From Kiritimatiellia bacterium (lineage in GTDB: Bacteria; Verrucomicrobiota; Kiritimatiellia; RFP12; DVOR01): a stretch of 64,000 nt of DNA. The DNA is taken from contig JAVVWU010000005.1 of the NCBI GenBank assembly GCA_036651955.1, positions 1,153 through 65,152 of the forward strand, given 5' to 3'. Within the stretch, counting starts at the first letter, position 1. The number at the start of each line of letters is the position of its first letter. Below the pieces are notes generated by a model. That model was not told the DNA's origin. It did no database searches and was given only the letters and a program-made list of their open reading frames with translations. A program made the position numbers and the translations under genes. Below, in pieces: positions 3,632-62,472 of the stretch.

Positions 3632-3666
3632 CGCAAGTTGCGCACTCACTCATTAGGATGAATAAA

Positions 3667-9696: not shown

Positions 9697-10026
9697 TTAT
9701 TTAGACGCTTCTGCGGCTTGAGCGGCTTTGCGAGCCGGCTCAACATAAGCTTTCGCGCGTTTTTTGCGGATTTGCGTTTCGACCTTGGCGGCGGCCATAT
9801 CGACTGCGGCACGCATCGAGGTGTCTGTATCTGCAGAACCGACGAAGGTCTCATCTTTACGCTGGGCAATGACTTCAGCAGAGCAAAGCTTGTTTTGGAA
9901 ATCCATCACGACGCGAACAGATTCAACCATCGGGAACGATTCCCCGATTTTTTCTGCGCGCTGTTTCGCGTATTCACGGAAACCTTCGGAAATGTCTTTG
10001 TGACGTGCATTCACTTCTATTGTCAT
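9697..10026 (-). CDS. hpf: Ribosome hibernation promoting factor / RaiA family (short form)
   Basis: 109 aa with the pattern MTIEVNARHKDISEGFREYAKQRAEKI...VRVVMD, typical of sigma-54 modulation protein/HPF. It lies downstream of lptB. Confidence 0.85.
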   Translation of the reverse strand: MTIEVNARHKDISEGFREYAKQRAEKIGESFPMVESVRVVMDFQNKLCSAEVIAQRKDETFVGSADTDTSMRAAVDMAAAKVETQIRKKRAKAYVEPARKAAQAAEASK

Positions 10027-29503: not shown

Positions 29504-29761
29504 TTAACGACGGAGACCAAGATCAGCAACAATCTTCTTGTACGATTCTTCGTTGGTGCGCTTGAGGTAATCCAGCAGCGTACGACGATTGTTAACCATA
29601 CGAATCAAACCATAACGAGAAGAGTTATCCTTCTTGTTAATCTTGAGGTGCTCGGTCAACTGCTCAATCTTCTTGGTCAGTGTCGCGACTTGGACTTCGC
29701 TAGATCCGGTATCACGTTCGTGACGTTGGAATTGCTCGCGAATTTTGCTCTTATCAACCAT
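29504..29761 (-). CDS. rpsO: 30S ribosomal protein S15
   Basis: 85 aa with FQRHERDTGSSEVQVA and RRTLLDYLKRTNEESYKKIVADLGLRR, a canonical S15 sequence. Confidence 0.95.
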   Translation of the reverse strand: MVDKSKIREQFQRHERDTGSSEVQVATLTKKIEQLTEHLKINKKDNSSRYGLIRMVNNRRTLLDYLKRTNEESYKKIVADLGLRR

Positions 29762-29980
29762 GTCTATGCTCTCTCATCTGTGTTTTGACTTCCACAGCCG
29801 TTCTATCACCTGACAGAACTAGCCCGCAACGGGGAACGTATCCTAAGACACGTCGCAGGAAAGTCCACACATCGTACCAAACCTTTATAGAGAGATACAA
29901 CTCTTTTCTCGTAAGCGCGTTTCCAATGATTGCGATGGGGCGAAAACTTTCTTAATTTGTCCTCTATCGGCAACATCTCC

Positions 29981-30347
29981 ATTCTGCATAAGTCCACATA
30001 AGAGGTCTGAATCGAAACGACACTTATGCAGAATGGCACAGTTGATGGCATGGTGGGGAGGCGGTGCGCCTCAGTGAGGTAAGCCCTCTACCTCACTGAG
30101 GTACGAGGTTAGGGTCAGTGAGGTACGAGCTCTACCTCAGTGAGGTGCGCAATCGAACCTTTTGGAATATCTCTTGAAATCTTCAGTAGGTATCAATAAA
30201 GCACAGAGAATCAATAGCTAAAAAGTTCGCTTGCGCGGACAGTCTGCTGTAATTTAGGAAAGCTCCCTCTCGCTCTTCCAAAGCGGAATATTTCAGGAGG
30301 CTAATTCTGCATAAGTGTTGTTAAGAAACAGAGACTCTATTTGAATT
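29981..30347 (+). repeat. Composite intergenic repeat element, copy A (paralogous to 61014-61378)
   Basis: Long near-identical blocks are shared with copy B. They are the ATTCTGCATAAGT / ACTTATGCAGAAT inverted pair, the CCTCAGTGAGGTA palindrome array, TTTTGGAATATCTCTTGAAATCTTC-GTAGGTATCAATAA, and a distal ATTCTGCATAAGTGTTGTTAAGAAACA block. Confidence 0.8.
30069..30146. repeat. Array of four TACCTCA-N-TGAGGTA palindromes with centres exactly 22 bp apart (copy A)
   Basis: Palindrome centres are at 30074, 30096, 30118 and 30140. The array can also be read as two tandem hairpins (30069-30101 with a 13-bp stem, and 30116-30142 with a 10-bp stem and one mismatch), each with a 7-nt loop. Confidence 0.8.
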
Positions 30348-30500: not shown

Positions 30501-30529
30501 TTGACCGGCAAGAGGTTCTATGGTATTTT
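30501..30529 (+). promoter_or_regulatory. Candidate sigma-70-type promoter for the small basic ORF
   Basis: TTGACC, a 17-nt spacer, then TATTTT. It lies about 45 nt upstream of ATG 30574. Confidence 0.3.
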
Positions 30530-30573: not shown

Positions 30574-30777
30574 ATGGGAACAGGTCGTACCCTTAATAAG
30601 AAGCCGGCAACACGTCCGGTCAAGTCTGTTGGTGAACGTCGTCGTCGTGATGCTGTTCAGCGCAAGCGTTTGATTGCATTTGGCATGGATGAAGTTGTTG
30701 TTGCAAAACTCAACGCCGTGCAGATTCGTGATTTTTTGCGTACGCCAGCGAAGACTAAAGCCGCTTTCGCGCAGTAA
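30574..30777 (+). CDS. Small highly basic hypothetical protein (67 aa)
   Basis: The ATG at 30574 is preceded by GGAGGA. The protein begins MGTGRTLNKKPATRPVKSVGERRRRDAVQRKRL. A strong terminator follows the gene. Confidence 0.5.
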   Translation: MGTGRTLNKKPATRPVKSVGERRRRDAVQRKRLIAFGMDEVVVAKLNAVQIRDFLRTPAKTKAAFAQ

Positions 30778-30800
30778 TTTGCGGGTAGCGTTAAGCAACA

Positions 30801-30836
30801 GCACATCCGCACTGCGGGTGTGCTTTGTTTTGTCTT
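30801..30836 (+). terminator. Rho-independent terminator after the small basic ORF
   Basis: GCACATCCGC-act-GCGGGTGTGC forms a 10-bp stem with one G-U pair, followed by TTTGTTTTGTCTT. Confidence 0.65.
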
Positions 30837-30850
30837 AAAAGGAGGTTGCA

Positions 30851-32191
30851 ATGTCACGTGATTTTCTTGACCGATTGGCTGCACGGCGGAAGTTTGGTAT
30901 TTGTCCGGGGCTTGAAACGATGCGTGCACTGTGTGCGGCATTGGGGAATCCGGAACGTGAGTTTGCAGTTATTCATATTGCCGGGACGAATGGCAAGGGA
31001 AGTGTGGCGGCGATTTGCGAGTCGGCTTTACGTACGATGGGGTTGCCCGTGGCGCGTTACACCTCGCCGCATTTGGTACGTGTGAATGAGCGCTTTGTCA
31101 TTCATGGGGAGCCGGTGGATGATGAGACGTTGACGTCGGCATTGGATCGTGTGGAGGCGGTCTGTGTGCAGACGGGCTTGGAACCGACCTTTTTTGAAGT
31201 TTTGACCGCATGTGCATGGGTTCTTTTTCGTGATGCTGGGATTCGCTTGGTGGTTGCTGAAGTGGGAATGGGCGGACGTTGGGACGCGACGAACGTTATT
31301 GAGTCTCCTCTTGTTTCGGTGATTACGCACGTGGCGCTCGATCATTGTGCCATTTTAGGTGATACGATTGAGGCAATCGCAGGAGAGAAGGCGGGAATTA
31401 TAAAAGAGCGGCGTCCGGTCGTAATTGGTGCCATGGATCCACGCGCACGCGCGGTCCTTCTGAAGGTGGCGGCAGAACGTCATGCGCCGCTTCATGATGC
31501 GGCAGAGGAAATTCGTGTGACGGTGGCGCGTCGAACCATTCATGGGCAGACACTTCAATGTTCTTCGGCAACGTGTGATTATCCGGCGGCATTGACGCGG
31601 TTGGCAGGATCGTATCAGGTGGAGAATGCGGCAACGGCACTATGTGCGTTGGAGCGGCTGAATGAACAAGGACTTGAAATTGCGCCGAAAGCGTTTTCCG
31701 AGGGTATGCGTACGGTGGTTTGGCAGGGGCGGTGCCAATTGATTGCTTCGGATCCTACGACCTTTTTGGATGGCGGACATAATCCAGATGCGTTAAGAGC
31801 TTTACGTGAAGCGTTGAAGTCGATGAACCTTCGCCGCAATGTGGCATTGGTGTGTGGCTTTTGTGAGGATAAGGCGGTGAAGGACGCATTGCGCGAGATT
31901 GCGCCAATCGTTTCTGCGGCGTGGACGGTACCGATTGCGAATGGGCGCAGTTTGCCTTCATCGGCGGTGGCGGAAGCAGCGCGTGGCGCAGGCATTCCTA
32001 CCGTTACGGCAATGGCGTCGGTTTCAGAGGCGATAGAGGCTGCGACGGAATGGGCGCAGGAGAATCGCGGAACGGTGCTGATTTGCGGTTCACTTTTCTT
32101 AGTCGGAGAGGTGTTAATTCTCCGTGGAGATGCCGAGGGCGATACGCTTGATCCGAGTGAGCAGGTGCGGGCGACACGCAAGCATGAGTGA
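30851..32191 (+). CDS. folC: Bifunctional folylpolyglutamate synthase / dihydrofolate synthase
   Basis: 446 aa with the P-loop HIAGTNGKGS and Mur-ligase-family motifs (VAEVGMGGRWDATN, FLDGGHNPDA). The RBS is AAAGGAGG. Confidence 0.9.
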   Translation: MSRDFLDRLAARRKFGICPGLETMRALCAALGNPEREFAVIHIAGTNGKGSVAAICESALRTMGLPVARYTSPHLVRVNERFVIHGEPVDDETLTSALDRVEAVCVQTGLEPTFFEVLTACAWVLFRDAGIRLVVAEVGMGGRWDATNVIESPLVSVITHVALDHCAILGDTIEAIAGEKAGIIKERRPVVIGAMDPRARAVLLKVAAERHAPLHDAAEEIRVTVARRTIHGQTLQCSSATCDYPAALTRLAGSYQVENAATALCALERLNEQGLEIAPKAFSEGMRTVVWQGRCQLIASDPTTFLDGGHNPDALRALREALKSMNLRRNVALVCGFCEDKAVKDALREIAPIVSAAWTVPIANGRSLPSSAVAEAARGAGIPTVTAMASVSEAIEAATEWAQENRGTVLICGSLFLVGEVLILRGDAEGDTLDPSEQVRATRKHE

Positions 32192-33839: not shown

Positions 33840-34039
33840 TCGGCGTGTAGGTTGCTCTCTGATTGAGAGCCGTTATGATAAAATTTGAAGTGCTGGCAAT
33901 CGGAGTTGCGTGGCATGCTGAACAATTGATGGAAGAGTGAAAATCAACGAAGAATTTGCGTTCAGAGCGAGAGATTGATTACTTGTGTAAAAGAGCTGAT
34001 GTTGGGAAGGGAGCGTGCGAAGTGGATAATTATGGCGAA

Positions 34040-35038
34040 ATGCTGATTTATCAGACGGAAGATGGTTTGACCAAAATAGATGTTAATCTGCAGGACGAAA
34101 CTGTATGGCTTAGTCAAGAACAAATGGCAGACTTGTTTCAGAGAAATAAATCTACGATTTCAAGACACATTAAAATTTTTTTTGAATTTGGTGAACTGGA
34201 TGTAAAAGTGGTTGTTGCGTAATTTGCAACAACCACTCCACATGGTGCGATGGATGGAAAAACGCAAAGCAGCATGACAAGATTTTACAATCTCGATGTT
34301 ATTATCTCCGTTGGTTATCGTGTGAAATCACAACGTGGTGTGCAGTTTCGCATATGGGCAACAAGCATCCTGAAAGAGTACATCAAAAAAGGCTTTGCAA
34401 TGGATGATGACCGCCTGAAAGAACTGGGCGGTGGCGGATATTTTAGAGAACTGTTGGAACGTATTCGCGATATTAGAGCATCGGAAAAGGTCTTTTATCG
34501 ACAGGTGCTTGAAATTTATGCAACAAGCGTGGACTACAATCCAAAAGCAGAGCTCTCCATCCAATTTTTCAAGCGCGTACAGAATGAAATCCACTATGCC
34601 GTTTCTGGCGAAACTGCCGCGGAGGTGATTTATCACCGTGCCGATGCAGAAAAAGACTTTATGGGACTTATGACCTTTTCGGGAGAACAGCCAACGCTTC
34701 GGGAAGCAAAAATTGCTAAGAATTATCTGAACGAGAAAGAATTGCGTTCAATGGGTCAGCTTGTTTCTGGATATCTTGATTTCGCTGAAAGGCAGGCGGA
34801 AAGAGAAGTGCCGATGACAATGGAAGGTTGGGCAAAGCACCTTGATGGAATTTTGACAGCAACGGGTGAAAAACTTCTTACTGGAAGTGGCACGGTCAGC
34901 CACTTGCAGGCTGTAGAAAAGGCTCAGATTGAATTTAAGAAATATAAAGCAAAAACACTGAGCAATGTGGAAAAAGACTATTTGGAGAGCATCAAACTAC
35001 TGGAACAAAAAGGGAAGAGTGGAAAGACGTTATTCTGA
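34040..35038 (+). pseudogene. RhuM-family protein gene interrupted by an in-frame TAA (34220-34222)
   Basis: MLIYQTEDGLTKIDVNLQDETVWLSQEQMADLFQ...VVA-stop-FATTTPHGAMDGKTQSSMTRFYNLDVIISVGYRVKSQRGVQFRIWAT reads as a continuous RhuM-like sequence in one frame (both ORFs are in frame 2). A TTG start at 33956 is also possible. Confidence 0.6.
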
Positions 35039-35061
35039 AAATGTGAATCTGTGGAGGAAGT

Positions 35062-35574
35062 ATGATATTGGAAACAGAAAGACTGTATCTACGAGAAATG
35101 AAGCAATCTGATTTTGAAACTTTGTGCAACATATTACAGGATGAAGATACGATGTATGCGTATGAAGGAGCATTCAGTGATAAAGAAGTTCAAGAATGGC
35201 TGGATAGGCAGATTGGTCGTTATCATCAATGGAACTTCGGTTTATGGGCAGTAATTTTGAAAGAAACGGATGAGATGGTTGGTCAAGGTGGGCTTACAAT
35301 ACAACCGTGGAAAGAAAATGAAGTACTTGAAATAGGATATCTTTTCGAACGTCAATATTGGCATAATGGCTACGCTACTGAAGCTGCAATCGCTTGTAAA
35401 AAGTATGCTTTTGAAATATTGGGTGCAGATGAAGTTTGCTCAATTATTAGAGATTCAAATATAGCATCTCAGAATGTGGCTATTAGAAATGGCATGGTAG
35501 TGGAAAGTACGTGGACAAAGCATTATAGAGGTGTGATAATGCCACATTATCGTTATGTTGTATATCACGAATAA
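35062..35574 (+). CDS. GNAT-family N-acetyltransferase (RimJ/RimL-like)
   Basis: 170 aa with TERLYLREMKQSDFE, LEIGYLFERQYWHNGYATEAA and NIASQNVAIRNGM, typical of Acetyltransf_3-type GNATs. Confidence 0.8.
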   Translation: MILETERLYLREMKQSDFETLCNILQDEDTMYAYEGAFSDKEVQEWLDRQIGRYHQWNFGLWAVILKETDEMVGQGGLTIQPWKENEVLEIGYLFERQYWHNGYATEAAIACKKYAFEILGADEVCSIIRDSNIASQNVAIRNGMVVESTWTKHYRGVIMPHYRYVVYHE

Positions 35575-35833
35575 AGTTCTATATAAACCGAACCTATTCA
35601 GTAACTACCATTGCTTGTTTCCGTAAATATAATCTCTGCGTTCAAAGCTCGTTGATCTATTCACAAGTGAAAGCGAAGAGGCAAAGTACCCTTCATCTAC
35701 TTTACTGAAATACAAGATTTTTTGATTTGTTCACTCAAAGATAGAGATCCGTGGGCTTATTACTCGTAATAATGAGGCTAAGATTCCCAATGGCTATTAA
35801 CAGTAACCGCTCACGCTATGTTAAAATAGCCCT

Positions 35834-39683: not shown

Positions 39684-39740
39684 GTAGAGGTAATGTTTGA
39701 ATGGGACATTTAGAGTCCCCCTTTGAGTAAGGATACGACG

Positions 39741-41036
39741 ATGGCCAAGTTCAGATACAAGGCAGTAGATTCTCAGGGTAAAGAAGTCTTGAGCACGGTT
39801 GAGGCAGATTCTCAAGGTGCTGCGATTGAAAAAATTCGCGCGATGCAATTGACCCCCAAGGCAATTGGCATGGTAAAGGAAGAATCCGCGGATGAAAGCG
39901 TGCCGGCGAAATCTTCGTTTGCTACGAAAGCAAAGAAGCCGAGTGGCGGCTTGGTGTTTTCAACGCCCAAGTTCTTGCGTGGTCGCGTAAAGACAAAAGA
40001 TTTAATGGTTTTGACACGCCAACTTGCAACGTTGGTGGATGCCGGTTTGCCGCTGACGCGTGGATTGCGTGTGCTTCAACGGCAAACGGCGAATGAGTCG
40101 CTCAAAGAAGCATTGACTGGAATGCTTGAAACGGTAGAGACCGGTAATACATTTTCGGAATCGTTGGGAAACTACCCGAAGATTTTCAATCACCTTTACG
40201 TCAATATGGTCAAGGCGGGTGAAGCGGGTGGCGTATTGGAAACCGTTCTCAATCGTCTGGCTGAATTTATGGAGAAGGCGGAAAAGATTAAGAATAAGGT
40301 CAAAGGTGCAATGACCTATCCGGTGGTCGTTCTTTGCGCGGCATTGGGCATTGTAGTCTTTCTGATGCTGGCGGTGATTCCTAAGTTCCAGCAGATCTTC
40401 AATGATTTGATGGGCGGTCAAGGAATGCCGGCATTGACACAGTTTGTAATCAATCTTTCCGGATGGATGCAGAACTACTGGATGGTGATTTTCCCTGCAA
40501 TCTTTGGTTCGATTATTCTGATTAAAATGTTCTTCAAAACGCCCAAGGGGTCGTATATTCAAGATGTCATTGCGCTTCGCGCTCCAGTCTTTGGCTCATT
40601 GACGCAAAAGACGATTGTTGCGCGTTTGACGCGTACACTTGGAACGTTGCTTGCTTCTGGCGTTCCGGTGCTTCAAGCACTTTCGATTGTCAAGGATACC
40701 ACGGGCAATCAAGTGATTAGTAATGCGATTCAGTCTGTTCACGAAAGTGTGAAGGAAGGTGAAGGCATGACGGCACCGCTGGGCGCCTGTGGCGTCTTTC
40801 CTCCGATGGTGGTTTCCATGGTGGAAGTCGGTGAAGAAACGGGCGCACTGTCTGAAATGCTTCTCCGTGTCGCAAACACGTATGACGATGAAGTGGACAA
40901 TGCGGTGGCTTCAATGACTTCTATCATTGAACCGATTATGATTATTTTCCTCGCGGTGATTGTAGGCGGTATCGTAATCGCAATGTTTATGCCACTCATC
41001 ACCATTATTGGAACGATTGGTCAACAGGCTCAATAA
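39741..41036 (+). CDS. gspF: Type II secretion / type IV pilus platform protein (GspF/PilC family)
   Basis: It starts MAKFRYKAVDSQGKEV. Two GspF repeats are present (LTRQLATLVDAGLPLTRGL and LTRTLGTLLASGVPVLQAL) with three TM segments. Confidence 0.85.
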   Translation: MAKFRYKAVDSQGKEVLSTVEADSQGAAIEKIRAMQLTPKAIGMVKEESADESVPAKSSFATKAKKPSGGLVFSTPKFLRGRVKTKDLMVLTRQLATLVDAGLPLTRGLRVLQRQTANESLKEALTGMLETVETGNTFSESLGNYPKIFNHLYVNMVKAGEAGGVLETVLNRLAEFMEKAEKIKNKVKGAMTYPVVVLCAALGIVVFLMLAVIPKFQQIFNDLMGGQGMPALTQFVINLSGWMQNYWMVIFPAIFGSIILIKMFFKTPKGSYIQDVIALRAPVFGSLTQKTIVARLTRTLGTLLASGVPVLQALSIVKDTTGNQVISNAIQSVHESVKEGEGMTAPLGACGVFPPMVVSMVEVGEETGALSEMLLRVANTYDDEVDNAVASMTSIIEPIMIIFLAVIVGGIVIAMFMPLITIIGTIGQQAQ

Positions 41037-41046
41037 GGGCATTTGT

Positions 41047-41760
41047 ATGAAACGCGGATTTACACTGATTGAATTGCTTGTGGTCATTGTCATTATCGGC
41101 ATTCTTGTTTCCGGTGTCTTTATGATGATGCGAGCCGGTGGTGATAAAGCAGGGATTGCGCAAACCGTTACGAAGGTTCACGCGATTGCAACGCTTTTGG
41201 AAGAGTACAAAGCACAGTACGGGAACTATCCGATTGTGACAGATCGTGATGGAAACGGATGTGCGAAGCTTGAATTTTCATTCCTGTGTGATCCGGGAAG
41301 CGATGCGACTGGTTCGTCGCCTGTTGTTTTTGGGCTCTTCTCGCATTTTATCCCACGTGCGACAACAATTGATCAGGAAGCCGAAGATTCCATGAGGGGA
41401 TATTATGAACGGCAGTTTTCGAATCCGGAAAAGGGTTCCATTTGGGAATCCGAGTATACGGCTGGTTCCAGTATGGAAAAGATTGCCAGAGGAGAAGCGG
41501 CAGATCCACGTCTTGCTTTGGTGAATCGCGCCTTTCGGCGACTTAAGAAAGACGGAGTTGTTTCTGCTGGGAGTTCCGTCAATATTGAAACGGGGCGCGA
41601 AACGTACCATGCGACAGCGTCAGATTCTTGGGGACGTGCGTTGATGTATCGAATGGATGGATCGAATGGCGAGATTGTTTCCTATGGTCCTGATGGAAAA
41701 TATGGGACTTCGGATGATATTACGAGTGCCGGTATGGGAAATGATGAAGATGAGGACTGA
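41047..41760 (+). CDS. Prepilin-type protein, GspG-like with a large internal insertion and acidic tail
   Basis: The class III signal is MKRG|FTLIELLVVIVIIGIL. The C-terminal part (DSWGRALMYR...SYGPDGKYGTSDDI) is GspG-like. The protein ends GNDEDED. Confidence 0.7.
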   Translation: MKRGFTLIELLVVIVIIGILVSGVFMMMRAGGDKAGIAQTVTKVHAIATLLEEYKAQYGNYPIVTDRDGNGCAKLEFSFLCDPGSDATGSSPVVFGLFSHFIPRATTIDQEAEDSMRGYYERQFSNPEKGSIWESEYTAGSSMEKIARGEAADPRLALVNRAFRRLKKDGVVSAGSSVNIETGRETYHATASDSWGRALMYRMDGSNGEIVSYGPDGKYGTSDDITSAGMGNDEDED

Positions 41761-41773
41761 AAGGAACGCAACG

Positions 41774-42379
41774 ATGTTGAAGAATAAGAGTTCTCTGTCT
41801 CATGTCCGTGGCTTTACGTTGATTGAAGTCCTCGTGGTGATTGTGATTATTGCCATTCTGGGCGCCTCCTCTTTTGGTGGATATGCGCATTTTATGGAGA
41901 AGGCACGTCAGAAAAACGCCATGGATGTGTGCGAACAAATTAAGACGGCATGGACGAGTTATCATCGAGAGATTGGTTTTTGGCCGGACAAGGTGAGTAA
42001 AAACGGCGTTCATCAAATGGACACTAAAATGTGTGAAATTATTGGGAAAGCTAATTTACTCGATGTCCTCTACATTGATGATAGTCAACAGACTACAGGG
42101 CTGAATCGGAATAAGGACAAAGAATCCGAACTTAAGTATGGTCTATTGGATCCGATTGGACTGAAACGGTTCAAGCGAGGACAGACGGGGAAAAAAGTGA
42201 CAGATCATCTCTATCAATTTGTTCTCGATGTCAATGAGGATGGCATTGTGAATGGGGACGATGGATTGCCTGCAAAAGTTTCCAAGGGGCGTACCCTTCG
42301 TGGTGATATCGTTGTTTGGTGCTGGCCTGAAGACGATGAGGCTAAGGCTGACGGCGAGACGTATGCTCAAAGTTGGTAA
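41774..42379 (+). CDS. Prepilin-type N-terminal cleavage/methylation protein (pseudopilin)
   Basis: The leader is MLKNKSSLSHVRG|FTLIEVLVVIVIIAILG. The protein is 201 aa. Confidence 0.65.
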   Translation: MLKNKSSLSHVRGFTLIEVLVVIVIIAILGASSFGGYAHFMEKARQKNAMDVCEQIKTAWTSYHREIGFWPDKVSKNGVHQMDTKMCEIIGKANLLDVLYIDDSQQTTGLNRNKDKESELKYGLLDPIGLKRFKRGQTGKKVTDHLYQFVLDVNEDGIVNGDDGLPAKVSKGRTLRGDIVVWCWPEDDEAKADGETYAQSW

Positions 42380-42391
42380 AGGAGTGCTCTT

Positions 42392-43015
42392 ATGTTTTCG
42401 TTGCGTTCTAAATCTTCGCATAGTGGCTTTACACTCATTGAACTGTTGGTCGTGATCGCGATTTTGGCGACATTGATTGGTTTAGGTGCCGTAGGAATTT
42501 CAAAGACGATGAAAGGTGCGGATGAAACGCGCCGCAATGCGTTTGCAAAAACGGTCGAATCGGCGCTGATGGCGTACAAGAATGAAACGGGGAGTTATCC
42601 ACTGGCGGCTGATAATGATGCGGATAAAAATGGGCAGATTCATTACGGTTCGGTGAGTAATAATAATGCCGATAAGCCCAATGCAAAAGTTTTGTTAACT
42701 TTATTTGGGCGTAACGAGAGTGGGCGTCGTGAGGCAACGAAGCGCGCTTATATTACGGACAGCTCCGATCTTTATGTTTACAAAGGGAAGCGGATCCGAA
42801 AGCTTGATGAGGCGTTCCAATCGGGCGGAGTTTCCGCTGATGATATGATTGGGTTTAAGATTATGATGGGAAAAACGACGAGTACGAAGTATAAGAAAAT
42901 GAGTGGATCGCACGCATTTTCACCGATTAAAATCTCATTTGATCTTGAATTAGATTCCTATTCGGTTTCCGTTCCAAGTGATGGGCAGTTTAATCAAGTG
43001 ATTCAACTGAATTGA
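42392..43015 (+). CDS. Prepilin-type N-terminal cleavage/methylation protein (pseudopilin)
   Basis: The leader is MFSLRSKSSHSG|FTLIELLVVIAILATLIG. The protein is 207 aa. Confidence 0.65.
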   Translation: MFSLRSKSSHSGFTLIELLVVIAILATLIGLGAVGISKTMKGADETRRNAFAKTVESALMAYKNETGSYPLAADNDADKNGQIHYGSVSNNNADKPNAKVLLTLFGRNESGRREATKRAYITDSSDLYVYKGKRIRKLDEAFQSGGVSADDMIGFKIMMGKTTSTKYKKMSGSHAFSPIKISFDLELDSYSVSVPSDGQFNQVIQLN

Positions 43016-43023
43016 GGTCTGAT

Positions 43024-43824
43024 ATGAAGAAGCGCGGCTTTACATTGATTGAACTCCTGATTGTGATTGGCATCGCAGCGATGTTAATCACAATGGCGTC
43101 AACGGGGTTCTTCGGTGCGTTGCGTCAGGAAAGTGTCACGAAGTCACGGAATCAATTGCGTGATGTCATCCTTTTGGCTCGGCAACAGGCGTGTATTCTG
43201 GGGCAGCCACACGTGGTCGTCTGTTGGAATAGTGATACGTCGGTGGTTGTTGGTAATGATACGCAAAAAGCGAAGCAGGGGAAATTTGCACTCTTTCAAT
43301 ATGTCGGGCAGGTCTGGCGAAAAGGTAATGAGCTGTATGTTCCTTTTGGGCTTCAACGAGATGTATTGTCGACGCTTAAAAAGGGATCGCGCGTGATAAG
43401 TCTTGCAGATGTAGACGCAGACAAATTTGCAAAGTTGACAGATATTATGGCGGATGCGTCTAAGACGGCAGATCAAATTGCAGAGGACAAGAGTTATTCT
43501 GCCACGATTAAATTCGACTATTTGGTCGGAGGCGCGGAGGGCACTTCCAATTGGGAACCGCAAATGTACAAGGTCGCAGATGTGGATGGATCGTTGAGAG
43601 CCGTTACGAAGCGTGGAATCCCGTTGGCTGTTCGTGCTTCTCAAACGTACACGCTTCCTAAACTTTATGCTTTTGGTAGTGATCGTCAAGTCTTTGTCTT
43701 TGCTCCTGATGGACGTGTCACGACCGCAGGGTCGGTCACGGCGCAGCACAGTGTCGCGAAAGGTTCTAAAAACGCCACATTTACGCTCACGGTGGATGAC
43801 AAGGGCTCAGTCACATTGAAATAG
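43024..43824 (+). CDS. Prepilin-type protein, GspH-like by size and position
   Basis: The leader is MKKRG|FTLIELLIVIGIAAMLI. The protein is about 266 aa. A TTG start at 43012 is also possible. Confidence 0.6.
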   Translation: MKKRGFTLIELLIVIGIAAMLITMASTGFFGALRQESVTKSRNQLRDVILLARQQACILGQPHVVVCWNSDTSVVVGNDTQKAKQGKFALFQYVGQVWRKGNELYVPFGLQRDVLSTLKKGSRVISLADVDADKFAKLTDIMADASKTADQIAEDKSYSATIKFDYLVGGAEGTSNWEPQMYKVADVDGSLRAVTKRGIPLAVRASQTYTLPKLYAFGSDRQVFVFAPDGRVTTAGSVTAQHSVAKGSKNATFTLTVDDKGSVTLK

Positions 43825-43833
43825 GAAGCGGTG

Positions 43834-44337
43834 ATGAAACGTTCTTTTCTTTTGAAACTTCGCGATGGCTTCTCTTTGATCGAAGTGAATATGGCGATCT
43901 TTGTCTTGGCTGGCGGTGCGCTTGCGCTGTTGGGACTGTTTCCCCTCGGGTTACGGGAAAGTCTCGCTTCTCGTGGAGAAATGCGTGTCGCTGCCTTTGC
44001 CGAACAGTTTATGGGCGCGGCGCGTATTGCTGTCAACGATCCTTCCGTCGTCGATATCCCGTCACTTCGTAAAGTCATGCAAGACAGTTTCAATTTCAAA
44101 TTGAGTGAGAACGTTGGAAAAAATGACGATCAAAATGCCGAGCAGGATACGAATTCAGACGTGTACTATCGCGGATGGATTTTGAAGACAACCGCATACG
44201 ATTTAGGTAACGCGAGAGAAATGGTTGAGGTCGGAGTACAGGTGACGACAGAAAACTGGAAGCAAAATAAACGCGCGCTTATTTCTGCCCCTGTCTATGC
44301 GGTCAATGTCATTATTGATACGAAGAACGCTCATTGA
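43834..44337 (+). CDS. Prepilin-type protein, GspI-like by position
   Basis: The leader is MKRSFLLKLRDG|FSLIEVNMAIFVLAGGALALLG. The protein is about 167 aa. Confidence 0.55.
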   Translation: MKRSFLLKLRDGFSLIEVNMAIFVLAGGALALLGLFPLGLRESLASRGEMRVAAFAEQFMGAARIAVNDPSVVDIPSLRKVMQDSFNFKLSENVGKNDDQNAEQDTNSDVYYRGWILKTTAYDLGNAREMVEVGVQVTTENWKQNKRALISAPVYAVNVIIDTKNAH

Positions 44338-44356
44338 GTGGGGATGAGGAAGTGAT

Positions 44357-45046
44357 ATGAAACGTTTTAGAAAACATTCCACACATCAAGGGTTCTCATT
44401 GATTGAGATTCTTGTGGCAATGACCATCTTGACGGTGATTGTTTTGATTGTTGCGCGTATTTTTCAACAAACAGGGCTTGCATGGTCTTTGGGATTGCGT
44501 CGCGCAGATGCGCAATCGGTGACGCGTGCCGTATTGGGATCAATTACACGTGATCTCTCAATGATGGTTGACCCGTGTAATTTTGTTTCACCAGATGCCA
44601 CGTTGCAGGAAAAGGCATTAAGTGATTCCATTGGACTATCGGCAGGGAATCCGATTAGTAGCGGGCTTGATTTTTGGATTCTTCGTCCAACGAATGATCC
44701 CGTTGCAACGTTGGAAAAAGCAGAAAAAAGAGAGCTTGTCCATATTGTTTATGCAGGGAGTTCTGGCGTTGTCAATCGTACGGAAACGGTGCTTGATGGC
44801 GCCTCCATTTCGACGGAGTATAAAATCGGGAAAGGAAGCGTTAAGTTTGAAAGCTTAAAGGTAAACTTCCCACAAAAGACATTCTCTTCATTCTATGAAG
44901 ATGAACCGGGTGTCAAAATTACGGTTAAGCCCGAAACGCCGCCCGATATCAATGACTATGAAATTTCTGTGGCTTCATCAGGTCCCGATGGTGAATGGGG
45001 AACGGATGATGATATTCGCCCGTGGGTGAAGGGGGAGGACAAGTAA
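44357..45046 (+). CDS. Prepilin-type protein, GspJ-like by position
   Basis: The leader is MKRFRKHSTHQG|FSLIEILVAMTILTVIVLIV. The protein is 229 aa. Confidence 0.6.
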   Translation: MKRFRKHSTHQGFSLIEILVAMTILTVIVLIVARIFQQTGLAWSLGLRRADAQSVTRAVLGSITRDLSMMVDPCNFVSPDATLQEKALSDSIGLSAGNPISSGLDFWILRPTNDPVATLEKAEKRELVHIVYAGSSGVVNRTETVLDGASISTEYKIGKGSVKFESLKVNFPQKTFSSFYEDEPGVKITVKPETPPDINDYEISVASSGPDGEWGTDDDIRPWVKGEDK

Positions 45047-45562
45047 ATGAAACGTTCAACTCTCTCAATTGCCAATAAAGGTTTTACACTCATTGAATTA
45101 CTCGTTGTAATTGTGATTATCGGAATCCTCATTTCTGCTTTTGCAATCTCAACCGCCGCTGCTCGTGAAAATGCAAAGATTGCTAAGGCGACGGCTGAAA
45201 GTCGTGAATTAGGAAATGCGATTCGTCTCTTTTGTATGACACAATACGATACTGCCATTGATGCCAAGCATGATCCTATGCGCGATTTGGGATTGAGTGA
45301 TGGCTTGAATGATGCCGGCTCTTCAATCGTCAATATGTTGACAAAGCCGAACTCGAATAATGGTAACACCGTTTACTATAATGCTTCTGACAAGATGATT
45401 CGCAAGAATAATCTCTGTGACCCCTGGGGGAATCCCTACAAGATAAGAGTCAAGAAAGTGCTTCCGCAAGATTCGAAGACATCGAACGATTACACCATTA
45501 TTGTCCCCTTTGAAGGGCGTCATCGTGCTCTTGAACCTATGAATGTGCCAGTCGGGAATTAA
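45047..45562 (+). CDS. gspG: GspG-like major pseudopilin
   Basis: The leader is MKRSTLSIANKG|FTLIELLVVIVIIGILI, followed by ARENAKIAKATAESRELGNAIRLF and the GspG hallmark DPWGNPYKIRV. Confidence 0.75.
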   Translation: MKRSTLSIANKGFTLIELLVVIVIIGILISAFAISTAAARENAKIAKATAESRELGNAIRLFCMTQYDTAIDAKHDPMRDLGLSDGLNDAGSSIVNMLTKPNSNNGNTVYYNASDKMIRKNNLCDPWGNPYKIRVKKVLPQDSKTSNDYTIIVPFEGRHRALEPMNVPVGN

Positions 45563-57621: not shown

Positions 57622-58662
57622 TTATTCGGCAACGGTAGCGGAAGGCTTTTGAGCCTCAAAAAGGCTGGCTAAATAGTCTTTAACTAAAGGAAGTGCACGG
57701 GAGAGTCGCACGGGGATATCGCATCCTGCGGCACGAAGATGTCCGCCTCCGCCAAAATGATGCGCGATGGAGACAGCTGAAAAATAAGCGTTCTCTTCTC
57801 GTGTACGAATACTTAACCGCGTGACATTCGGTTTGTCACTTGTCTCATAAAAGAACAGTGACACTTTTGCCGTGGGAACGGAACGCGGGATATCAATCAC
57901 GTCTTCCACTTCACTCTTAGGAACGCCCGCAGTCTTGAAATTACCGGCAGTTAAACTGATGAGTGAAACTTTTCCTCTAAACCATGTTTGGAGCGAATCA
58001 TACGCACGGCGACGGAGATAGAGCGCTCCCTCACTGGCATAAAGATAAATCCGGTCATTGATGGAAGAGGAATCAACTCCGCAAGCGAGCAATTCTGCGC
58101 CTGCTTTCATCGTAGAGGTATGCGTGCAAGAGTACGAAAAACGCCCCGTGTCTGTAATCAATGCGACCCAAAGGGCTTCCGCTGTCTCTTTATCAAACGT
58201 CCATTTCCAGCGTTTGGCAAAGCGATAAACTAATTCACCCGTACTACTGGCATCGGGCACAACCCAACGGGCAATGCCAAAAGGTACACTTGTAACATGG
58301 TGATCCAGATTGACAATCGGCAGTTTCGCAACCGCTTCCCGAAGGGATCCTTCGGGAATACGATTCAATCCGGAGCAATCCAAGACAAATGCGCAATCGT
58401 AATCTTTTGCACGAACCTTCGTTGGTACGATGCAATCGGCGTAGTCTAAAAGAAATTTGGGCGGTCCCATTCCAATGGAGGACAATGCGACCGTGGGCTT
58501 CCAACCATTGGCTTTCAAAAGACGCGCCATGGCGATACAACTTCCCGTTGCGTCGCCATCCGGGCGCGTATGTCCAGTGATAAGGATACGCTGATAGTGC
58601 TTCAGCGTATCGAAAAGTGCTTTCGCACTTCCACGTGGACGATGTGTGAAAGCCTCAGTCAT
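57622..58662 (-). CDS. nrnA: DHH/DHHA1-family phosphoesterase (NrnA-like oligoribonuclease / pAp phosphatase)
   Basis: It has ILITGHTRPDGDATGS, NLDHH and the DHHA1 motif (GGGGHLRAAG). The ATG at 58662 shares one nucleotide with the upstream stop (TAATG). Confidence 0.75.
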   Translation of the reverse strand: MTEAFTHRPRGSAKALFDTLKHYQRILITGHTRPDGDATGSCIAMARLLKANGWKPTVALSSIGMGPPKFLLDYADCIVPTKVRAKDYDCAFVLDCSGLNRIPEGSLREAVAKLPIVNLDHHVTSVPFGIARWVVPDASSTGELVYRFAKRWKWTFDKETAEALWVALITDTGRFSYSCTHTSTMKAGAELLACGVDSSSINDRIYLYASEGALYLRRRAYDSLQTWFRGKVSLISLTAGNFKTAGVPKSEVEDVIDIPRSVPTAKVSLFFYETSDKPNVTRLSIRTREENAYFSAVSIAHHFGGGGHLRAAGCDIPVRLSRALPLVKDYLASLFEAQKPSATVAE

Positions 58663-60818
58663 TAGACGTTGGTGGGCTGAAATTCGGTCGGGATTTGTGA
58701 AAGCCAAGCGAAAATGCTGTCATCAAGAGGTGCAATCGCTTTCACGGTCGCTTCAAGTACGCCTTTTTCTCCGGGGATTTCAACTTTTTCACCGGCACGT
58801 TTTCCGATCAATGCAATCGCTAAACGTGAACGGCAAGAAATAATATTGAGCGCTTCATCACGATCAAGTTCTCCCAAAATCGTGTAGAGAGTTGAACCTT
58901 GTGCAGTCTCAACGGTAACGCGCGTTCCCGGCTCCGCGACTTCGCCAGAAACACCGGAAAAATCGCTAACCTTGAGCGGCTTAAGAACGCGGTTCATCTC
59001 ATCTTGCTTGGAGAGAAGGACACGCTGATGATCTTTGGCAAACTGATATTCCGCATTTTCACGCAAGTCACCGTAGCTACGTGCCGTCGAAATGTCGCGA
59101 ACATTTGCCGGCATTTCAACGTTAATGAGATGATCATACGCCAGCTTATAAGTCGTCAACGAACGCAAGGACGTCAAATGCAGATGCTCTTCCTGTGCCT
59201 TGGCGGCACGGCGGAGCTGATTCAGTGAAGGATCAAAACGCGCCATACGCACGAGAATGTTACGTTGAGAACTCGTCTCCCACGAAACAGAGGCTTGAAT
59301 GCGCTCGAAAATAACTTGACGATCGAAACTCGTCAATTGCTTGCAAAGTTCCTCAAGCCAACGTGCACTGTCAAAGAAAGCCTGCAAAGCGTTCCGCATC
59401 TTGAGATTCTCGCCTGTGAGACGCTGCTCTGTAATGTGAATGGCTTGCATCACAAGCTCTAACAGTGCCGGCGTCTGCCATGCTTCTGCCGCTTCACGAT
59501 TACGCAACGCCCACACGACTAACGTCGGAACAGGTGCCGAACGACGCGCCAATAATGCGCGAACGGCATTCCCCACTTCAACGTCACCTTTGAGGGCGTC
59601 TAACGTAGCACCCAGCGCAACACTGTTCAGAACGGGGATACGCTCCAAAATGGACGGCTTGAGTTCAGGCTTCACCGCCAAGAGAAAACCAACCAATGCT
59701 GCAACATCACGCGCAGAAAGCCCGTGCATTGCCAAAAGAATATTGTCCTGCTCGTCCTTCTCGACCAGCGTCTCCGCTTGAAGAACTTGTTCTTCGGGAG
59801 TCGAAAGCTCCAATTTACGCAACAATACTGCCACTTGCGCATAGCGCGCATAGTCTACTTTATCGGCGCCCTTGAGCGCGAAATTCAGACGTGTGGCAAA
59901 CGTTTCCTTGTAACTGTCAGGAATAATACCTTTGTTCGCGAGCAGGAAATTTTGCACAGAATCATAAACCGACTTGATATCACGTTCTTTTGCAAATGCC
60001 TTCAGCCACTTGTCACCAAACGTCTCGGCCTCATCTAAGAGCACCAACGGTTCACTGCGCTTTGTCGGAATATCAACAGGGTGAACTTTATCAGCCTTTA
60101 GACCACGGCGCGCAGCTTCCCAAAAAGCTTTCCATTCCGCGACAGGGACTAATCCAATCTCTGCGAGACGATCTGCCAAACGCTGAACGGGAAGCGGTCC
60201 GTAACTCTTAAGTGTAAGGCGAACGAGTTCCGCCGGATGCTTCTTTGTAAGCTCAATAATCGCGTCCTTATTACGAAGGTAACGCGTCATCAAATGGGAA
60301 TCATCAGCGACACTTAAGCTCTGCCCTGCGACAGCGAGCGACATGGTGTGACCTTTTTTACCTTCAAAGTCAATAATCACCTTGCCATAAAATGTATCAA
60401 TCGACTGGATTTGTCCGAAGCCCCAAGATTGGCTGCTTACATAAACACCGGGCTTGAGCGCGAGCAACACCGTTAAGCGGTGAACAATCGCCGGCGCAAT
60501 CGCCGTATTTAATCCGATGGAATCAACGAGCAACTTTTCTTCTGACGTTGTCGCACTCCGGCGAACGATTTCACGCATCTGCGCTAAATCAATTCCCTTG
60601 AGCTCTTCGCTGTGTTGCCCATAAAAATCAACGCAGGCAATGACGCCAAGCAAATTTTTAGCCTTTACAGCAGTTTCAGTTAAAGTTACAAATGCGCGTA
60701 TTGCGCCCTTTGCATCTTCGCTTAATTGCGAACCAATCAAATCAAGCACAGCAGAAACATCGGTTGTTTCAGCTTCAAATAAATTCTGAATCTCTATTCC
60801 GAACGCAACTTTGTCCAT
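58662..60818 (-). CDS. greA: Long GreA-like transcription elongation factor (about 718 aa, large N-terminal extension)
   Basis: The C-terminal ~160 aa are GreA-like (YGDLRENAEYQFAKDHQ, then the FKBP-like domain VAEPGTRVTVE...YTILG...ISCRSRLAIALIGKRAGEKVEI). The preceding ~550 aa carry no motif I recognise. The ATG at 60818 is preceded by GGAAGGAA. Confidence 0.7.
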   Translation of the reverse strand: MDKVAFGIEIQNLFEAETTDVSAVLDLIGSQLSEDAKGAIRAFVTLTETAVKAKNLLGVIACVDFYGQHSEELKGIDLAQMREIVRRSATTSEEKLLVDSIGLNTAIAPAIVHRLTVLLALKPGVYVSSQSWGFGQIQSIDTFYGKVIIDFEGKKGHTMSLAVAGQSLSVADDSHLMTRYLRNKDAIIELTKKHPAELVRLTLKSYGPLPVQRLADRLAEIGLVPVAEWKAFWEAARRGLKADKVHPVDIPTKRSEPLVLLDEAETFGDKWLKAFAKERDIKSVYDSVQNFLLANKGIIPDSYKETFATRLNFALKGADKVDYARYAQVAVLLRKLELSTPEEQVLQAETLVEKDEQDNILLAMHGLSARDVAALVGFLLAVKPELKPSILERIPVLNSVALGATLDALKGDVEVGNAVRALLARRSAPVPTLVVWALRNREAAEAWQTPALLELVMQAIHITEQRLTGENLKMRNALQAFFDSARWLEELCKQLTSFDRQVIFERIQASVSWETSSQRNILVRMARFDPSLNQLRRAAKAQEEHLHLTSLRSLTTYKLAYDHLINVEMPANVRDISTARSYGDLRENAEYQFAKDHQRVLLSKQDEMNRVLKPLKVSDFSGVSGEVAEPGTRVTVETAQGSTLYTILGELDRDEALNIISCRSRLAIALIGKRAGEKVEIPGEKGVLEATVKAIAPLDDSIFAWLSQIPTEFQPTNV

Positions 60819-61013: not shown

Positions 61014-61378
61014 AATCTGCATAAGTCCACATAATGGTCTGAAAGAAAACGACACTTATGCAGAATGGCACAGTTCCGGCACAGGAGGGAGGGTGCGGCG
61101 CCTCAGTGAGGTACAGCCACTACCTCACTGAGGTACGAGGTCAGGGTCAGTGAGGTACGAGCTCTACCTCACTGAGGTGCGCGATGAAACGTTTTGGAAT
61201 ATCTCTTGAAATCTTCTGTAGGTATCAATAACGTACGAGAAATGAACGGCTAATGGATGCACCTCGAGGCAGTCGGGCGCATCCGAAACGATGAACAGAT
61301 TTTTTCTGCCATAAGGCGCGTATTAGGACGCTGTGATTCTGCATAAGTGTTGTTAAGAAACAAGGCTCTATTTTGATT
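61014..61378 (+). repeat. Composite intergenic repeat element, copy B (paralogous to 29981-30347)
   Basis: It has the same block order and orientation as copy A. The inverted pair is at 61014-61026 and 61054-61066, the palindrome array at 61101-61178, the conserved block ends at about 61231, and the distal block is at 61336-61378. Confidence 0.8.
61101..61178. repeat. Array of four TACCTCA-N-TGAGGTA palindromes with centres exactly 22 bp apart (copy B)
   Basis: Palindrome centres are at 61106, 61128, 61150 and 61172. Both hairpin readings are perfect in this copy. Loop 1 (cagccac) differs from copy A, while loop 2 (cgagctc) is identical. Confidence 0.8.
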
Positions 61379-61493: not shown

Positions 61494-61522
61494 TTGCTTT
61501 TTGATGTGAGGCGCGCAATAAT
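61494..61522 (+). promoter_or_regulatory. Candidate promoter for purC
   Basis: TTGCTT, a 17-nt spacer, then AATAAT. It lies about 35 nt upstream of ATG 61558. This is based on hexamer resemblance only. Confidence 0.25.
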
Positions 61523-61557: not shown

Positions 61558-62472
61558 ATGAAGTTTGATAAACGTGGCGCACTGATGGAGATTGAGATCC
61601 CCGGTCTTGTAAAGAAGCAGGGGAAGGTGCGTGATATTTATGATTTGGGCGATAAGATGTTGATCGTCGTGACCGATCGTTTGAGTGCTTTTGATGTCAT
61701 TATGGACGATGGTGTACCCAATAAAGGTAAAGTTCTCAACAGCATTTCGACCTTTTGGTTCCGTAAATTTGCCAAGCTTTGCCCCAACCATTTGATTTCT
61801 GCCGACATTAAAGACTATCCTGCGCCTTTTAATGGAATGCCGGAGTTGCAAAATCGTTCGATGCTCGTTCGTAAACTTAAAGTTATTCCTTATGAATGTA
61901 TCGTGCGCGGTTATCTTACCGGAAGCGGTTGGGCGGAGTATCAGAAGCAGGGGACGGTGAATGGGCAGAAACTTCGCGCAGGATATCAGAACGCTTCGAA
62001 GTTGGACGAAGTACTGTTTACGCCGACAACAAAGGCTGAAATCGGTGACCACGATATGGCGATTAGTGTTGCTGATATGTCGAAAGACATCGGCACTCCA
62101 CTTGCCAATGAGCTGAAAGAACTTTCAATCCGTATCTATTCCGAGGCTGCAAAGTTTGCAGAGACACGCGGTATTATTCTCGCCGATACAAAGTTTGAAT
62201 TTGGCGTTAACGAAAAAGGCGAAGTTGTTCTTGCCGATGAGGTGCTAACGCCTGACTCGTCGCGTTTTTGGGCGAAGAAAACGTATGCTGTTGGTTCTAA
62301 TCCGCCGAGTATGGACAAGCAATTTGTGCGCGACTGGTTGGATTCCATTCAGTTCAATCATCAACCGCCAGCGCCCGCATTGCCCAATGAAGTGATTGAA
62401 AAGACGCAGGCAATTTATGCCGAGTGCTATGCCCGCCTCACCGAGGGTGAGACTTGCGCACCTGCGTTGTGA
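61558..62472 (+). CDS. purC: Phosphoribosylaminoimidazole-succinocarboxamide (SAICAR) synthase
   Basis: 304 aa with GKVRDIYD, IVVTDRLSAFD, RGYLTGSGW, LADTKFEFG and PDSSRFW. The RBS is TAAGGAG. Confidence 0.95.
   Translation: MKFDKRGALMEIEIPGLVKKQGKVRDIYDLGDKMLIVVTDRLSAFDVIMDDGVPNKGKVLNSISTFWFRKFAKLCPNHLISADIKDYPAPFNGMPELQNRSMLVRKLKVIPYECIVRGYLTGSGWAEYQKQGTVNGQKLRAGYQNASKLDEVLFTPTTKAEIGDHDMAISVADMSKDIGTPLANELKELSIRIYSEAAKFAETRGIILADTKFEFGVNEKGEVVLADEVLTPDSSRFWAKKTYAVGSNPPSMDKQFVRDWLDSIQFNHQPPAPALPNEVIEKTQAIYAECYARLTEGETCAPAL

Follow-up and report, generated by a model that had tools for sequence, protein, structure and literature searches.

Two intergenic regions in a 64,000-nt stretch of the genome of a Kiritimatiellia bacterium (GCA_036651955.1, contig JAVVWU010000005.1; hereafter the window) carry the same ordered set of short sequence blocks, which raised the question of what kind of element they represent. 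The initial annotation placed one copy between rpsO and a small open reading frame (sORF) ahead of folC (copy A) and another between a long greA and purC (copy B), and offered three explanations: a shared cis-regulatory module, a family of structured non-coding RNA (ncRNA) genes, or a non-autonomous mobile element. Our analysis confirmed a genuine non-coding DNA repeat of ~390 bp that is multi-copy and unclassified; it is low-copy, modular, and lineage-specific. It was found in one uncultured gut Kiritimatiellia species at at least four sites, all of them intergenic between divergent housekeeping genes. We tentatively interpret the element as a scaffold that acts at the DNA level in divergent promoter regions, where proteins would bind or loop it, and that has possibly spread as a low-copy, lineage-specific mosaic repeat.

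Comparison of the two intergenic regions with BLASTN showed 78.5% identity over 368 columns (E = 4e-75; 29983-30342 against 61016-61373), and weak similarity continued for ~25 nt to the left of the first of the 13-mers described below. No other similarity between the surroundings of copies A and B was detected by BLASTN within 3-4 kb on either side, and the flanking genes lay outside the aligned part. Since the similarity was confined to intergenic DNA, a segmental duplication, which the initial annotation had named as an outcome that would refute novelty, was ruled out. A broader suspicion of artefact, be it chance similarity, segmental duplication, or a repeat produced by misassembly, is fed by the facts that all the sequences are apparently metagenome assemblies and that some contigs are probably chimeric at the repeat. 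It was effectively refuted by the E-value, by the confinement of the similarity to intergenic DNA, and by independent assemblies of other samples, in which each copy was spanned together with its flanks at 97.6-98.3% identity (copy A in L017 and L026, copy B in L002 and L037).

Reading of the sequence and the alignment located all six ordered blocks of the initial annotation at the places given for them in both copies (Table 1). Each copy contains the 13-mer ATTCTGCATAAGT at three sites, of which the first and third are direct and the second is inverted. Its near-identity between the copies and the gap between the inverted pair (28 nt in copy A and 27 nt in copy B) stood as described, with the addition of one mismatch in site 1 of copy B that had been left unmentioned. 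The palindrome CCTCA(G/C)TGAGG forms four units per copy at intervals of exactly 22 bp; at two mismatches or fewer, it matched 12 times against 0.49 expected, and none of the shuffled sequences reached 12. The whole array of copy A (30066-30150) is an imperfect palindrome of ~85 nt. As single-stranded DNA, the array forms one 36-bp hairpin (copy A, -27.4 kcal/mol, z = -6.6; z about -6), with its units paired either as hairpins 1:2 and 3:4 or as 1:4 and 2:3. The 13-mer and TACCTCASTGAGGTA are candidate protein-recognition sequences of the element.

The distances between these motifs, measured from start to start, were nearly constant. Site 1 and the inverted site 2 were 40-41 bp apart and site 2 and the first palindromic unit 47 bp apart (a 34-bp linker) in every variant; the last unit was followed after 25 bp by the 23-nt invariant part of block iv. 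From block iv to site 3 the distance was exactly 144 bp in all three independent right halves (sORF-folC, purC, and purA), from site 3 to the tail motif CTCTATTT it was 30-31 bp, and from site 2 to site 3 it was 282 bp. The only exceptions were a 1-bp difference in locus L001 and the 1-bp differences between sites 1 and 2 and between site 3 and the tail. The number of palindromic units was three in L044, four in most copies, and five in L038, where the array sits at a contig end and may reflect an assembly effect. These changes came in whole 22-bp steps, so that the helical phase was kept.

The sequence between the motifs was free to change. Copies A and B differed at 2 of 106 positions in the repeated motifs versus 79 of 259 elsewhere (Fisher p = 2e-11); the 23-nt block of the motif set was defined by cross-copy identity, and the figure without the block iv part is 2 of 83. 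The stretch between block iv and site 3, described initially as about 100 nt of unrelated sequence, proved to be 104 nt long in both copies. The description as unrelated suited its last 50 nt, with 20-34% identity (random level), but not its first half, which was still 36-50% identical, and MAFFT aligned the spacer only with offsetting gaps. Differences between strains were also concentrated in the copy A spacer (7 in ~54 nt versus ~0.5% elsewhere). The purA alleles of two strains shared ~99% identity to the right of site 3, which dropped abruptly to ~50-60% in the 25-35 nt on its left side. Spacer mutagenesis of the type caused by diversity-generating retroelements was considered and rejected, as the between-strain substitutions were not adenine-specific. 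The combination of motifs that do not vary, intervening sequence that does, and distances that are locked points to a nucleoprotein architecture on DNA. Such a pattern would not result from gene conversion alone, which would have homogenized the loops and linkers too.

In the scaffold interpretation, the conserved parts would be putative protein sites on double-stranded DNA held at fixed distances. The left module would comprise the two inverted 13-mers, the 34-bp linker, and three to five dyad-symmetric sites of 11-15 bp placed every 22 bp, i.e., about two helical turns; the right module would comprise the 23-bp invariant block and the third 13-mer 144 bp after the start of that block. A multimeric 13-mer-binding protein might connect the proximal pair with site 3, which is 282 bp away from site 2, and thereby form a DNA loop; the phased palindromes might be occupied cooperatively, all on one helical face, by a dimeric protein. 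The array may instead extrude as a cruciform under the negative supercoiling generated by divergent transcription. Such a complex would sit between and upstream of the two divergent promoters and could modulate or insulate them. The module would have been copied within the species by duplication, recombination, or mobilization, and its copies may still exchange segments.

In helical-phase-dependent looping systems such as araO2-araI, the exact length is conserved and the sequence is free. The element resembles the araC-araBAD region in occupying a divergent region of ~300-400 bp, in using an asymmetric half-site three times, as a proximal pair and a distal site ~200-280 bp away, and in conserving spacing rather than sequence. 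It differs in that it lies upstream of both native promoters and overlaps neither, is dispersed as near-identical copies at unrelated genes, has an additional phased palindrome array, and has no obvious cognate regulator among the scanned genes of the window.

The other copies were found through exact-protein look-ups, which recovered loci of the same species from several metagenome-assembled genomes (MAGs; GCA_0366...) and from Logan assemblies of SRR258203xx runs; these loci differed from the window by 0.2-0.8%. The source names of PurC, PurA, and GltA homologs likewise assigned the window to an uncultured Kiritimatiellia. Apart from the assemblies spanning copies A and B, most contigs ended inside the element, as short-read assemblies do at a multi-copy repeat. 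The element accounts for the breaks, and probably also for mis-joins, that MAGs of this species have at these loci. A more diverged right half was located upstream of purA, where in L018 (GCA_036648375.1) it was joined to the rpsO-side left half; all three purA contigs broke at or within ~70 nt downstream of the purA right half. A left-half-only copy was present in L044 between gltA and an HU-like gene, with the 13-mer pair, the linker, and three units, and without block iv and the third 13-mer. In L001 (GCA_036655095.1), the gltA left half was joined to the purC right half. The joins in L001 and L018 are either assembly chimeras or real repeat-mediated rearrangements. All such joins involved only the same seven flanks, which is indirect evidence for only ~4 loci.

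In related species, whose PurC, PurA, and GltA proteins are 83-88%, 87%, and 86% identical, respectively, to those of the host, no trace of the element was detected at purC, purA, or gltA. Their intergenic regions were short (147 nt at purA, 229 nt at gltA, and 66 nt at one purC locus), and the gene upstream of purC, purA, and gltA differed in every related species examined. Searches of the window and all 51 loci with nhmmer profiles of the left and right modules detected neither additional nor degenerate copies, and the loci of the relatives gave no match. Pattern scans, which required exact motif matches and would have missed diverged relatives, returned only three unrelated chance palindromes in GTDB genomes for the 13-mer hairpin (Mucilaginibacter, Bacteroidales, and Thiomicrorhabdus), five unrelated hairpins in JGI metagenomes for the palindrome, and zero matches to both motifs in IMG/VR. 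Plasmids and phages gave no match in blastn, and nothing relevant was found in the literature on Kiritimatiellae repeats or on the palindrome sequence.

An array of another sequence was observed upstream of purC in a related species (L012:3554-3700, the secA|purC intergenic region). It also has a 22-bp period, with GTGATACGCCGTATCAC-type units at 3638, 3660, and 3682 and ACGTGCGAGC-type units 44 bp apart. A shared architecture without a shared sequence suggests that such arrays may form a wider class in this clade.

Dispersed intergenic repeats are usually taken as selfish DNA, and we considered whether the element is a non-autonomous mosaic repeat of the kind represented by bacterial interspersed mosaic elements (BIME) and REPIN, BOX, or miniature inverted-repeat transposable elements (MITE). 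In that case, a trans-acting transposase or recombinase would mobilize it, the motifs would be the sites of that enzyme, and the host would gain nothing. Restriction to one species-level lineage, the lack of the element in orthologous regions of the relatives, the occurrence of several near-identical copies at unrelated loci, the modularity seen in the left-half-only copy at gltA|HU and in the variable unit number, the mosaic patterns among copies and strains, and the breaks of short-read assemblies within the element are all consistent with this reading. So is its form, as the array resembles BIME (PMC2817692) and the layout resembles the A-Bn-C structure of BOX (PMC3049150). However, only ~4 copies are in evidence, with joins that link the same seven flanks, and all copies lie in divergent regions, whereas the parasitic interspersed repeats of pneumococcus are over-represented between convergent genes (PMC3049150). 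The spacer locked at 104 nt would be needless in a passive internal region. We regard a selfish origin of this kind as somewhat doubtful.

Terminal inverted repeats of the MITE type were not found, since the inverted repeat of 30001-30034 in 30304-30341 reaches the right end only, and on the left another ~50 nt of conserved sequence, with site 1 among them, lie beyond it. No direct repeat that could be a target-site duplication was shared by the flanks of copies A, B, purA, and gltA; CTCTAT, found near both ends, belongs to the conserved unit. Scanning ~30 of the ~55 genes of the window, about half of its ORFs and including those nearest both copies, against Pfam and NCBIfam revealed no transposase, RAYT, recombinase, or obvious cognate regulator. 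The initial annotation had likewise seen neither a transposase nor a target-site duplication, and its mobile-element option was thereby narrowed: a classical MITE was not supported, and the selfish mosaic repeat is what is left of it.

Sequences of the repetitive extragenic palindrome (REP) and BIME type consist of regularly spaced, alternating palindromic units and are described as protein-binding sites (PMC2817692). The array of the element likewise has regularly spaced, alternately oriented palindromic units, and it resembles REP/BIME and REPIN in being extragenic, species-specific, capable of forming hairpins, and variable in unit number. It differs in the size and period of the units (11-15 bp and 22 bp versus REPs of ~35 bp), in copy number (~4 versus >100), in location (divergent promoter regions versus the 3' ends of genes), in the presence of an unrelated 13-mer triplet and a 23-bp block around the array, and in the absence of a RAYT among the scanned genes. 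BOX elements have an A-Bn-C structure with a variable middle module, are reported to influence neighboring genes, and are present in ~100 or more copies without functional bias of their neighbors (PMC3049150). An A-Bn-C layout with a variable middle module of three, four, or five units was found here too, in form only. Common to both are the composite modular structure, the partly dyad-symmetric ends, and the confinement to one species (for BOX, one species and its nearest relative). There is no sequence relationship between them, the element is low-copy and in divergent regions, and BOX has no length-locked variable spacer. Thus, the element resembles BIME and BOX in form without any common sequence, and differs from them by its copy number, position, 13-mer triplet, and length-locked spacer.

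The 13-mers could also be read as the arms of recombinase core sites (ATTCTGCATAA-GTGTTG-TTAAGAAACAG, dif/Xer-like), the element being a substrate of site-specific recombination. Sites 2 and 3 would then invert a 269-bp segment, sites 1 and 3 would excise or exchange a cassette, and the array would bind accessory factors. Exact 13-bp inverted repeats (19-34 bp with mismatches) do enclose 269 bp, a size typical of invertible promoter segments, and 13-30 bp repeats around ~270 bp are likewise seen in invertons; several similar copies would fit one global recombinase. The abrupt divergence of the two purA alleles to the left of site 3, the contigs with different flank joins (gltA|purC in L001 and rpsO|purA in L018), and the fixed geometry, which is also expected of a recombination synapse, point in the same direction. 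As a lead only, the outer arm TTATGCAGAAT and the XerD arm of E. coli dif agree at 8 of 11 positions. Nevertheless, the orientation was the same in every contig entering the segment (~13 contigs from at least 8 samples), so that both orientations of an inverton were not seen at the contig level. Unlike an inverton, the segment yielded no promoter, conserved sequence and one more 13-mer are situated beyond the inverted pair, and the scanned genes of the window included no recombinase. Read as an 11-6-11 Xer/dif-type site, site 3 has weak dyad symmetry (6/11), and the putative second arm is poorly conserved, differing at every site and copy. The swapped flanks are explicable as assembly chimeras across a repeat of >95% identity, and phase-variable rpsO, greA, purC, or purA would be biologically odd. 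We consider recombination of this kind quite unlikely.

Transcription of the element as a structured ncRNA or leader RNA was the remaining option of the initial annotation. The 13-mers would form alternative helices (1:2 versus 2:3) and the palindromes stable hairpins. Folding was very favorable on both strands (z = -5.1 to -6.3). Site 3 and the tail, which make up the right end, imperfectly repeat 30001-30034 in inverted orientation (site 2 together with the 3' portion of the sequence between the inverted 13-mers), and therefore the minimum-free-energy folds close the whole element by a helix between the two. In both copies, site 2 with the sequence to its left pairs with site 3 and the tail, and the identical sites 1 and 3 compete for site 2, as in an attenuator. 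Against this, the array units are dyad-symmetric and fold equally on either strand, which is a property of DNA palindromes and not of an RNA specific to one strand. The right half had no consensus RNA structure (-6.5 kcal/mol) and is missing entirely from the copy in L044. The stems are invariant, so that covariation was uninformative, and the single substitution within a stem (site 1, position 2, T to A) was uncompensated. This reading appears very unlikely, and the ncRNA family of the initial list was not supported.

At gathering thresholds, Rfam models, including purine, ZTP, THF, and PRPP riboswitches and ribosomal protein leaders, gave no match in the whole window. At E ≤ 10, both regions returned only generic long-hairpin miRNA models on the array, with 14-34 bits versus thresholds of 59-200. 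These results, together with those for plasmids and phages, agreed with the initial remark that the element was not recognizable as any known family. Scans for tRNA and tmRNA found none, and the GC-skew switch expected at a replication origin or terminus was absent at both copies. Scans for sigma-70 promoters and terminators yielded nothing in the conserved blocks of either copy; their sole call within the element was a weak 5-pair hairpin in the copy A spacer, with no counterpart in copy B. A 30-nt part of the copy B spacer (61280-61309, CATCCGAAACGATGAACAGATTTTTTCTGC) was 80% identical to a terminator-like sequence at 9928-9957, a likeness that may be chance or a decayed terminator. In six frames, no ORF was conserved among copies A, B, and purA, as the initial annotation had noted for the first two; the only frame with the same length, of 19 codons with a TTG start and without a Shine-Dalgarno sequence, encodes a peptide that is not conserved. 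Thus, the element is probably neither an RNA gene nor a coding sequence.

Several specific candidates were examined and rejected. A type I toxin-antitoxin repeat (Sib/Ldr-like) would require a small conserved ORF with a ribosome-binding site, which is absent. A sigma-54 promoter (TGGCAC-N5-TTGC) at the invariant TGGCACAG was discarded, as the GC occurs at three offsets among the variants and the consensus spacing in only two of four. In a manual search, likenesses to sigma-54, sigma-32, IHF, CRP/FNR, DnaA-box, ARG-box, and GacA-box sites were either absent or inconsistently spaced between the copies.

Annotation of the flanks placed both copies in divergent promoter regions, as stated initially; two of the three divergent regions of the window carry a copy, and all four known copies lie between divergent genes. 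The flanking genes rpsO, folC, greA, and purC were also as stated, with the qualification that the sORF of 67 aa, which has its own promoter-like site and is followed by a strong terminator-like hairpin, separates copy A from folC. The genes beside the right halves are purC, purA, and the sORF-folC unit; those beside the left halves are rpsO, greA, and gltA. The proposed pairing of gene-expression with folate and purine genes was therefore supported in part: the right half at purA strengthens the purine link, but gltA, beside a left half, is not a gene-expression gene, and folC is separated from the element. A purine link for two of the three right halves (purC and purA) is suggestive.

The promoters beside the copies lie outside the element (Table 1). 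Upstream of purC, related species have a matching TTGC.. hexamer and (G/T)ATAAT at equal spacing. Outside the element at purA there is a conserved promoter followed by a PurR-box-like palindrome, both kept in species without the element. Since their own promoters are conserved in relatives that lack the element, purC and purA need no promoter from it. In both species (L043, ~232-247; L045, ~2948-2963), the inferred purA promoter is closely followed by this palindrome (GCACACGTTTGCGT / GCACACGTTTGCGTCG), and GCACACGTTTGCGTCG has one mismatch to the E. coli PurR operator core, CGCAAACGTTTGCG; it points to a putative control by a LacI-type PurR. A PurR-box scan of the window produced no more matches than expected by chance, with no such box near purC or folC.

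Four properties set the element apart from the selfish type of dispersed repeat: it is low-copy, every known copy is situated upstream of divergent promoters of housekeeping genes, conserved motifs and spacings are combined with free intervening sequence, and purine or folate genes stand beside two, arguably three, of the three right halves. It could even be a portable control cassette, i.e., a length-locked looping or recombination scaffold, recognized by a putative protein and recently copied before purC, purA, and sORF-folC and opposite rpsO, greA, and gltA. If so, a dispersed repeat would have rewired several housekeeping promoters, notably purine ones, into a new lineage-specific circuit, and the fixed-length, fast-evolving spacer would be a mechanistic by-product of the complex. 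We rate this stronger version unlikely.

The scaffold interpretation itself has to be weighed against several points. No cognate binding protein was found among the scanned genes of the window. The absence of the element at purC, purA, and gltA of the relatives implies a recent addition and not an old feature of a regulon, and the distances from the element to the flanking promoters and start codons were not constant. Recombinase or transposase sites of a selfish element would give the same invariant motifs. The copy number (at least four) is a lower bound, since short-read assemblies break inside the element, and the purine association is based on three right halves only. The cis-regulatory module of the initial annotation thus survives as a possible regulatory or architectural role at the DNA level, in favor of which speak the location in divergent promoter regions and the position of the native promoters outside the element. 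If a protein does bind the element, it would be a compact natural case of a bacterial repeat that disseminates regulatory sites, and a first handle on gene control in uncultured gut Kiritimatiellia.

Table 1. Parts of the element in copies A and B and neighboring features of the window.
Feature	Positions	Strand	Remark
Copy A, weakly conserved left flank, contains CTCTATCG (29962-29969)	29954-29980	+	BLAST of L002 (copy-B allele) against copy A starts at 29954; alignments
Copy A, site 1, 13-mer ATTCTGCATAAGT	29981-29993	+	
Copy A, 28-nt stretch between inverted 13-mers (CCA.ATA....GTC.GAA...AAACGAC)	29994-30021	+	partly conserved; A and B differ at 5/28
Copy A, site 2, inverted 13-mer ACTTATGCAGAAT + GGCACAG	30022-30041	-	20 nt invariant in all left-half variants
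Copy A, G-rich linker	30042-30068	+	sequence variable, length fixed
Copy A, four palindromic units CCTCA(G/C)TGAGG(TA) at 30069, 30091, 30113, 30135	30069-30147	.	22-bp period
Copy A, block iv, TTTTGGAATATCTCTTGAAATCT then TCAGTAGGTATCAATAA	30160-30199	+	first part invariant, second variable among alleles
Copy A, 104-nt spacer	30200-30303	+	length fixed, sequence variable
Copy A, site 3, direct 13-mer + tail GTTGTTAAGAAACAGAGACTCTATTTGAA	30304-30345	+	
Copy B, site 1, AATCTGCATAAGT	61014-61026	+	one mismatch to the 13-mer
Copy B, site 2, inverted 13-mer + GGCACAG	61054-61073	-	
Copy B, four palindromic units at 61101, 61123, 61145, 61167	61101-61179	.	array span 61098-61182
Copy B, block iv	61192-61231	+	
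Copy B, 104-nt spacer	61232-61335	+	
Copy B, site 3, 13-mer + tail	61336-61376	+	
rpsO	29504-29761	-	
Sigma-70-like promoter of the 67-aa ORF, TTGACC-17-TATTTT	30501-30529	+	promoter scan; outside the element
67-aa ORF (sORF)	30574-30777	+	immediate right neighbor of copy A
Terminator-like hairpin	30800-30824		between the 67-aa ORF and folC
folC	30851-32191	+	
Long GreA	58662-60818	-	
Inferred purC promoter, TTGCTT-17-AATAAT	61494-61522	+	alignment with relatives; not called by the consensus scanner; outside the element
purC	61558-62472	+	

Two of the neighboring genes had features of their own. The 67-aa ORF is conserved and encodes a very basic product (MGTGRTLNKKPATRPVKSVGERRRRDAVQRKRL...), which had no Pfam or NCBIfam match and could be a small nucleic-acid-binding protein. 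The long GreA is a fusion of 718 aa, in which a long N-terminal region (Pfam HTH_GRAD) precedes the GreA/GreB domains, and it resembles the proteins modelled by NCBIfam NF004969 and NF011309.

Elsewhere in the window, a 1.67-kb segment of low GC content (~41%) at 33969-35634 encodes a RhuM-family protein and a GNAT acetyltransferase. It was absent in L026 and L028 and present in a variant form in L027 and L029, and is a small strain-variable island. In addition, the region 39723-45562 contains a homolog of type II secretion system protein F and five consecutive genes that share the prepilin-type motif GFTLIELLVVI at their 5' ends; this cluster represents a pseudopilin operon, part of either a type II secretion system or a type IV pilus system.

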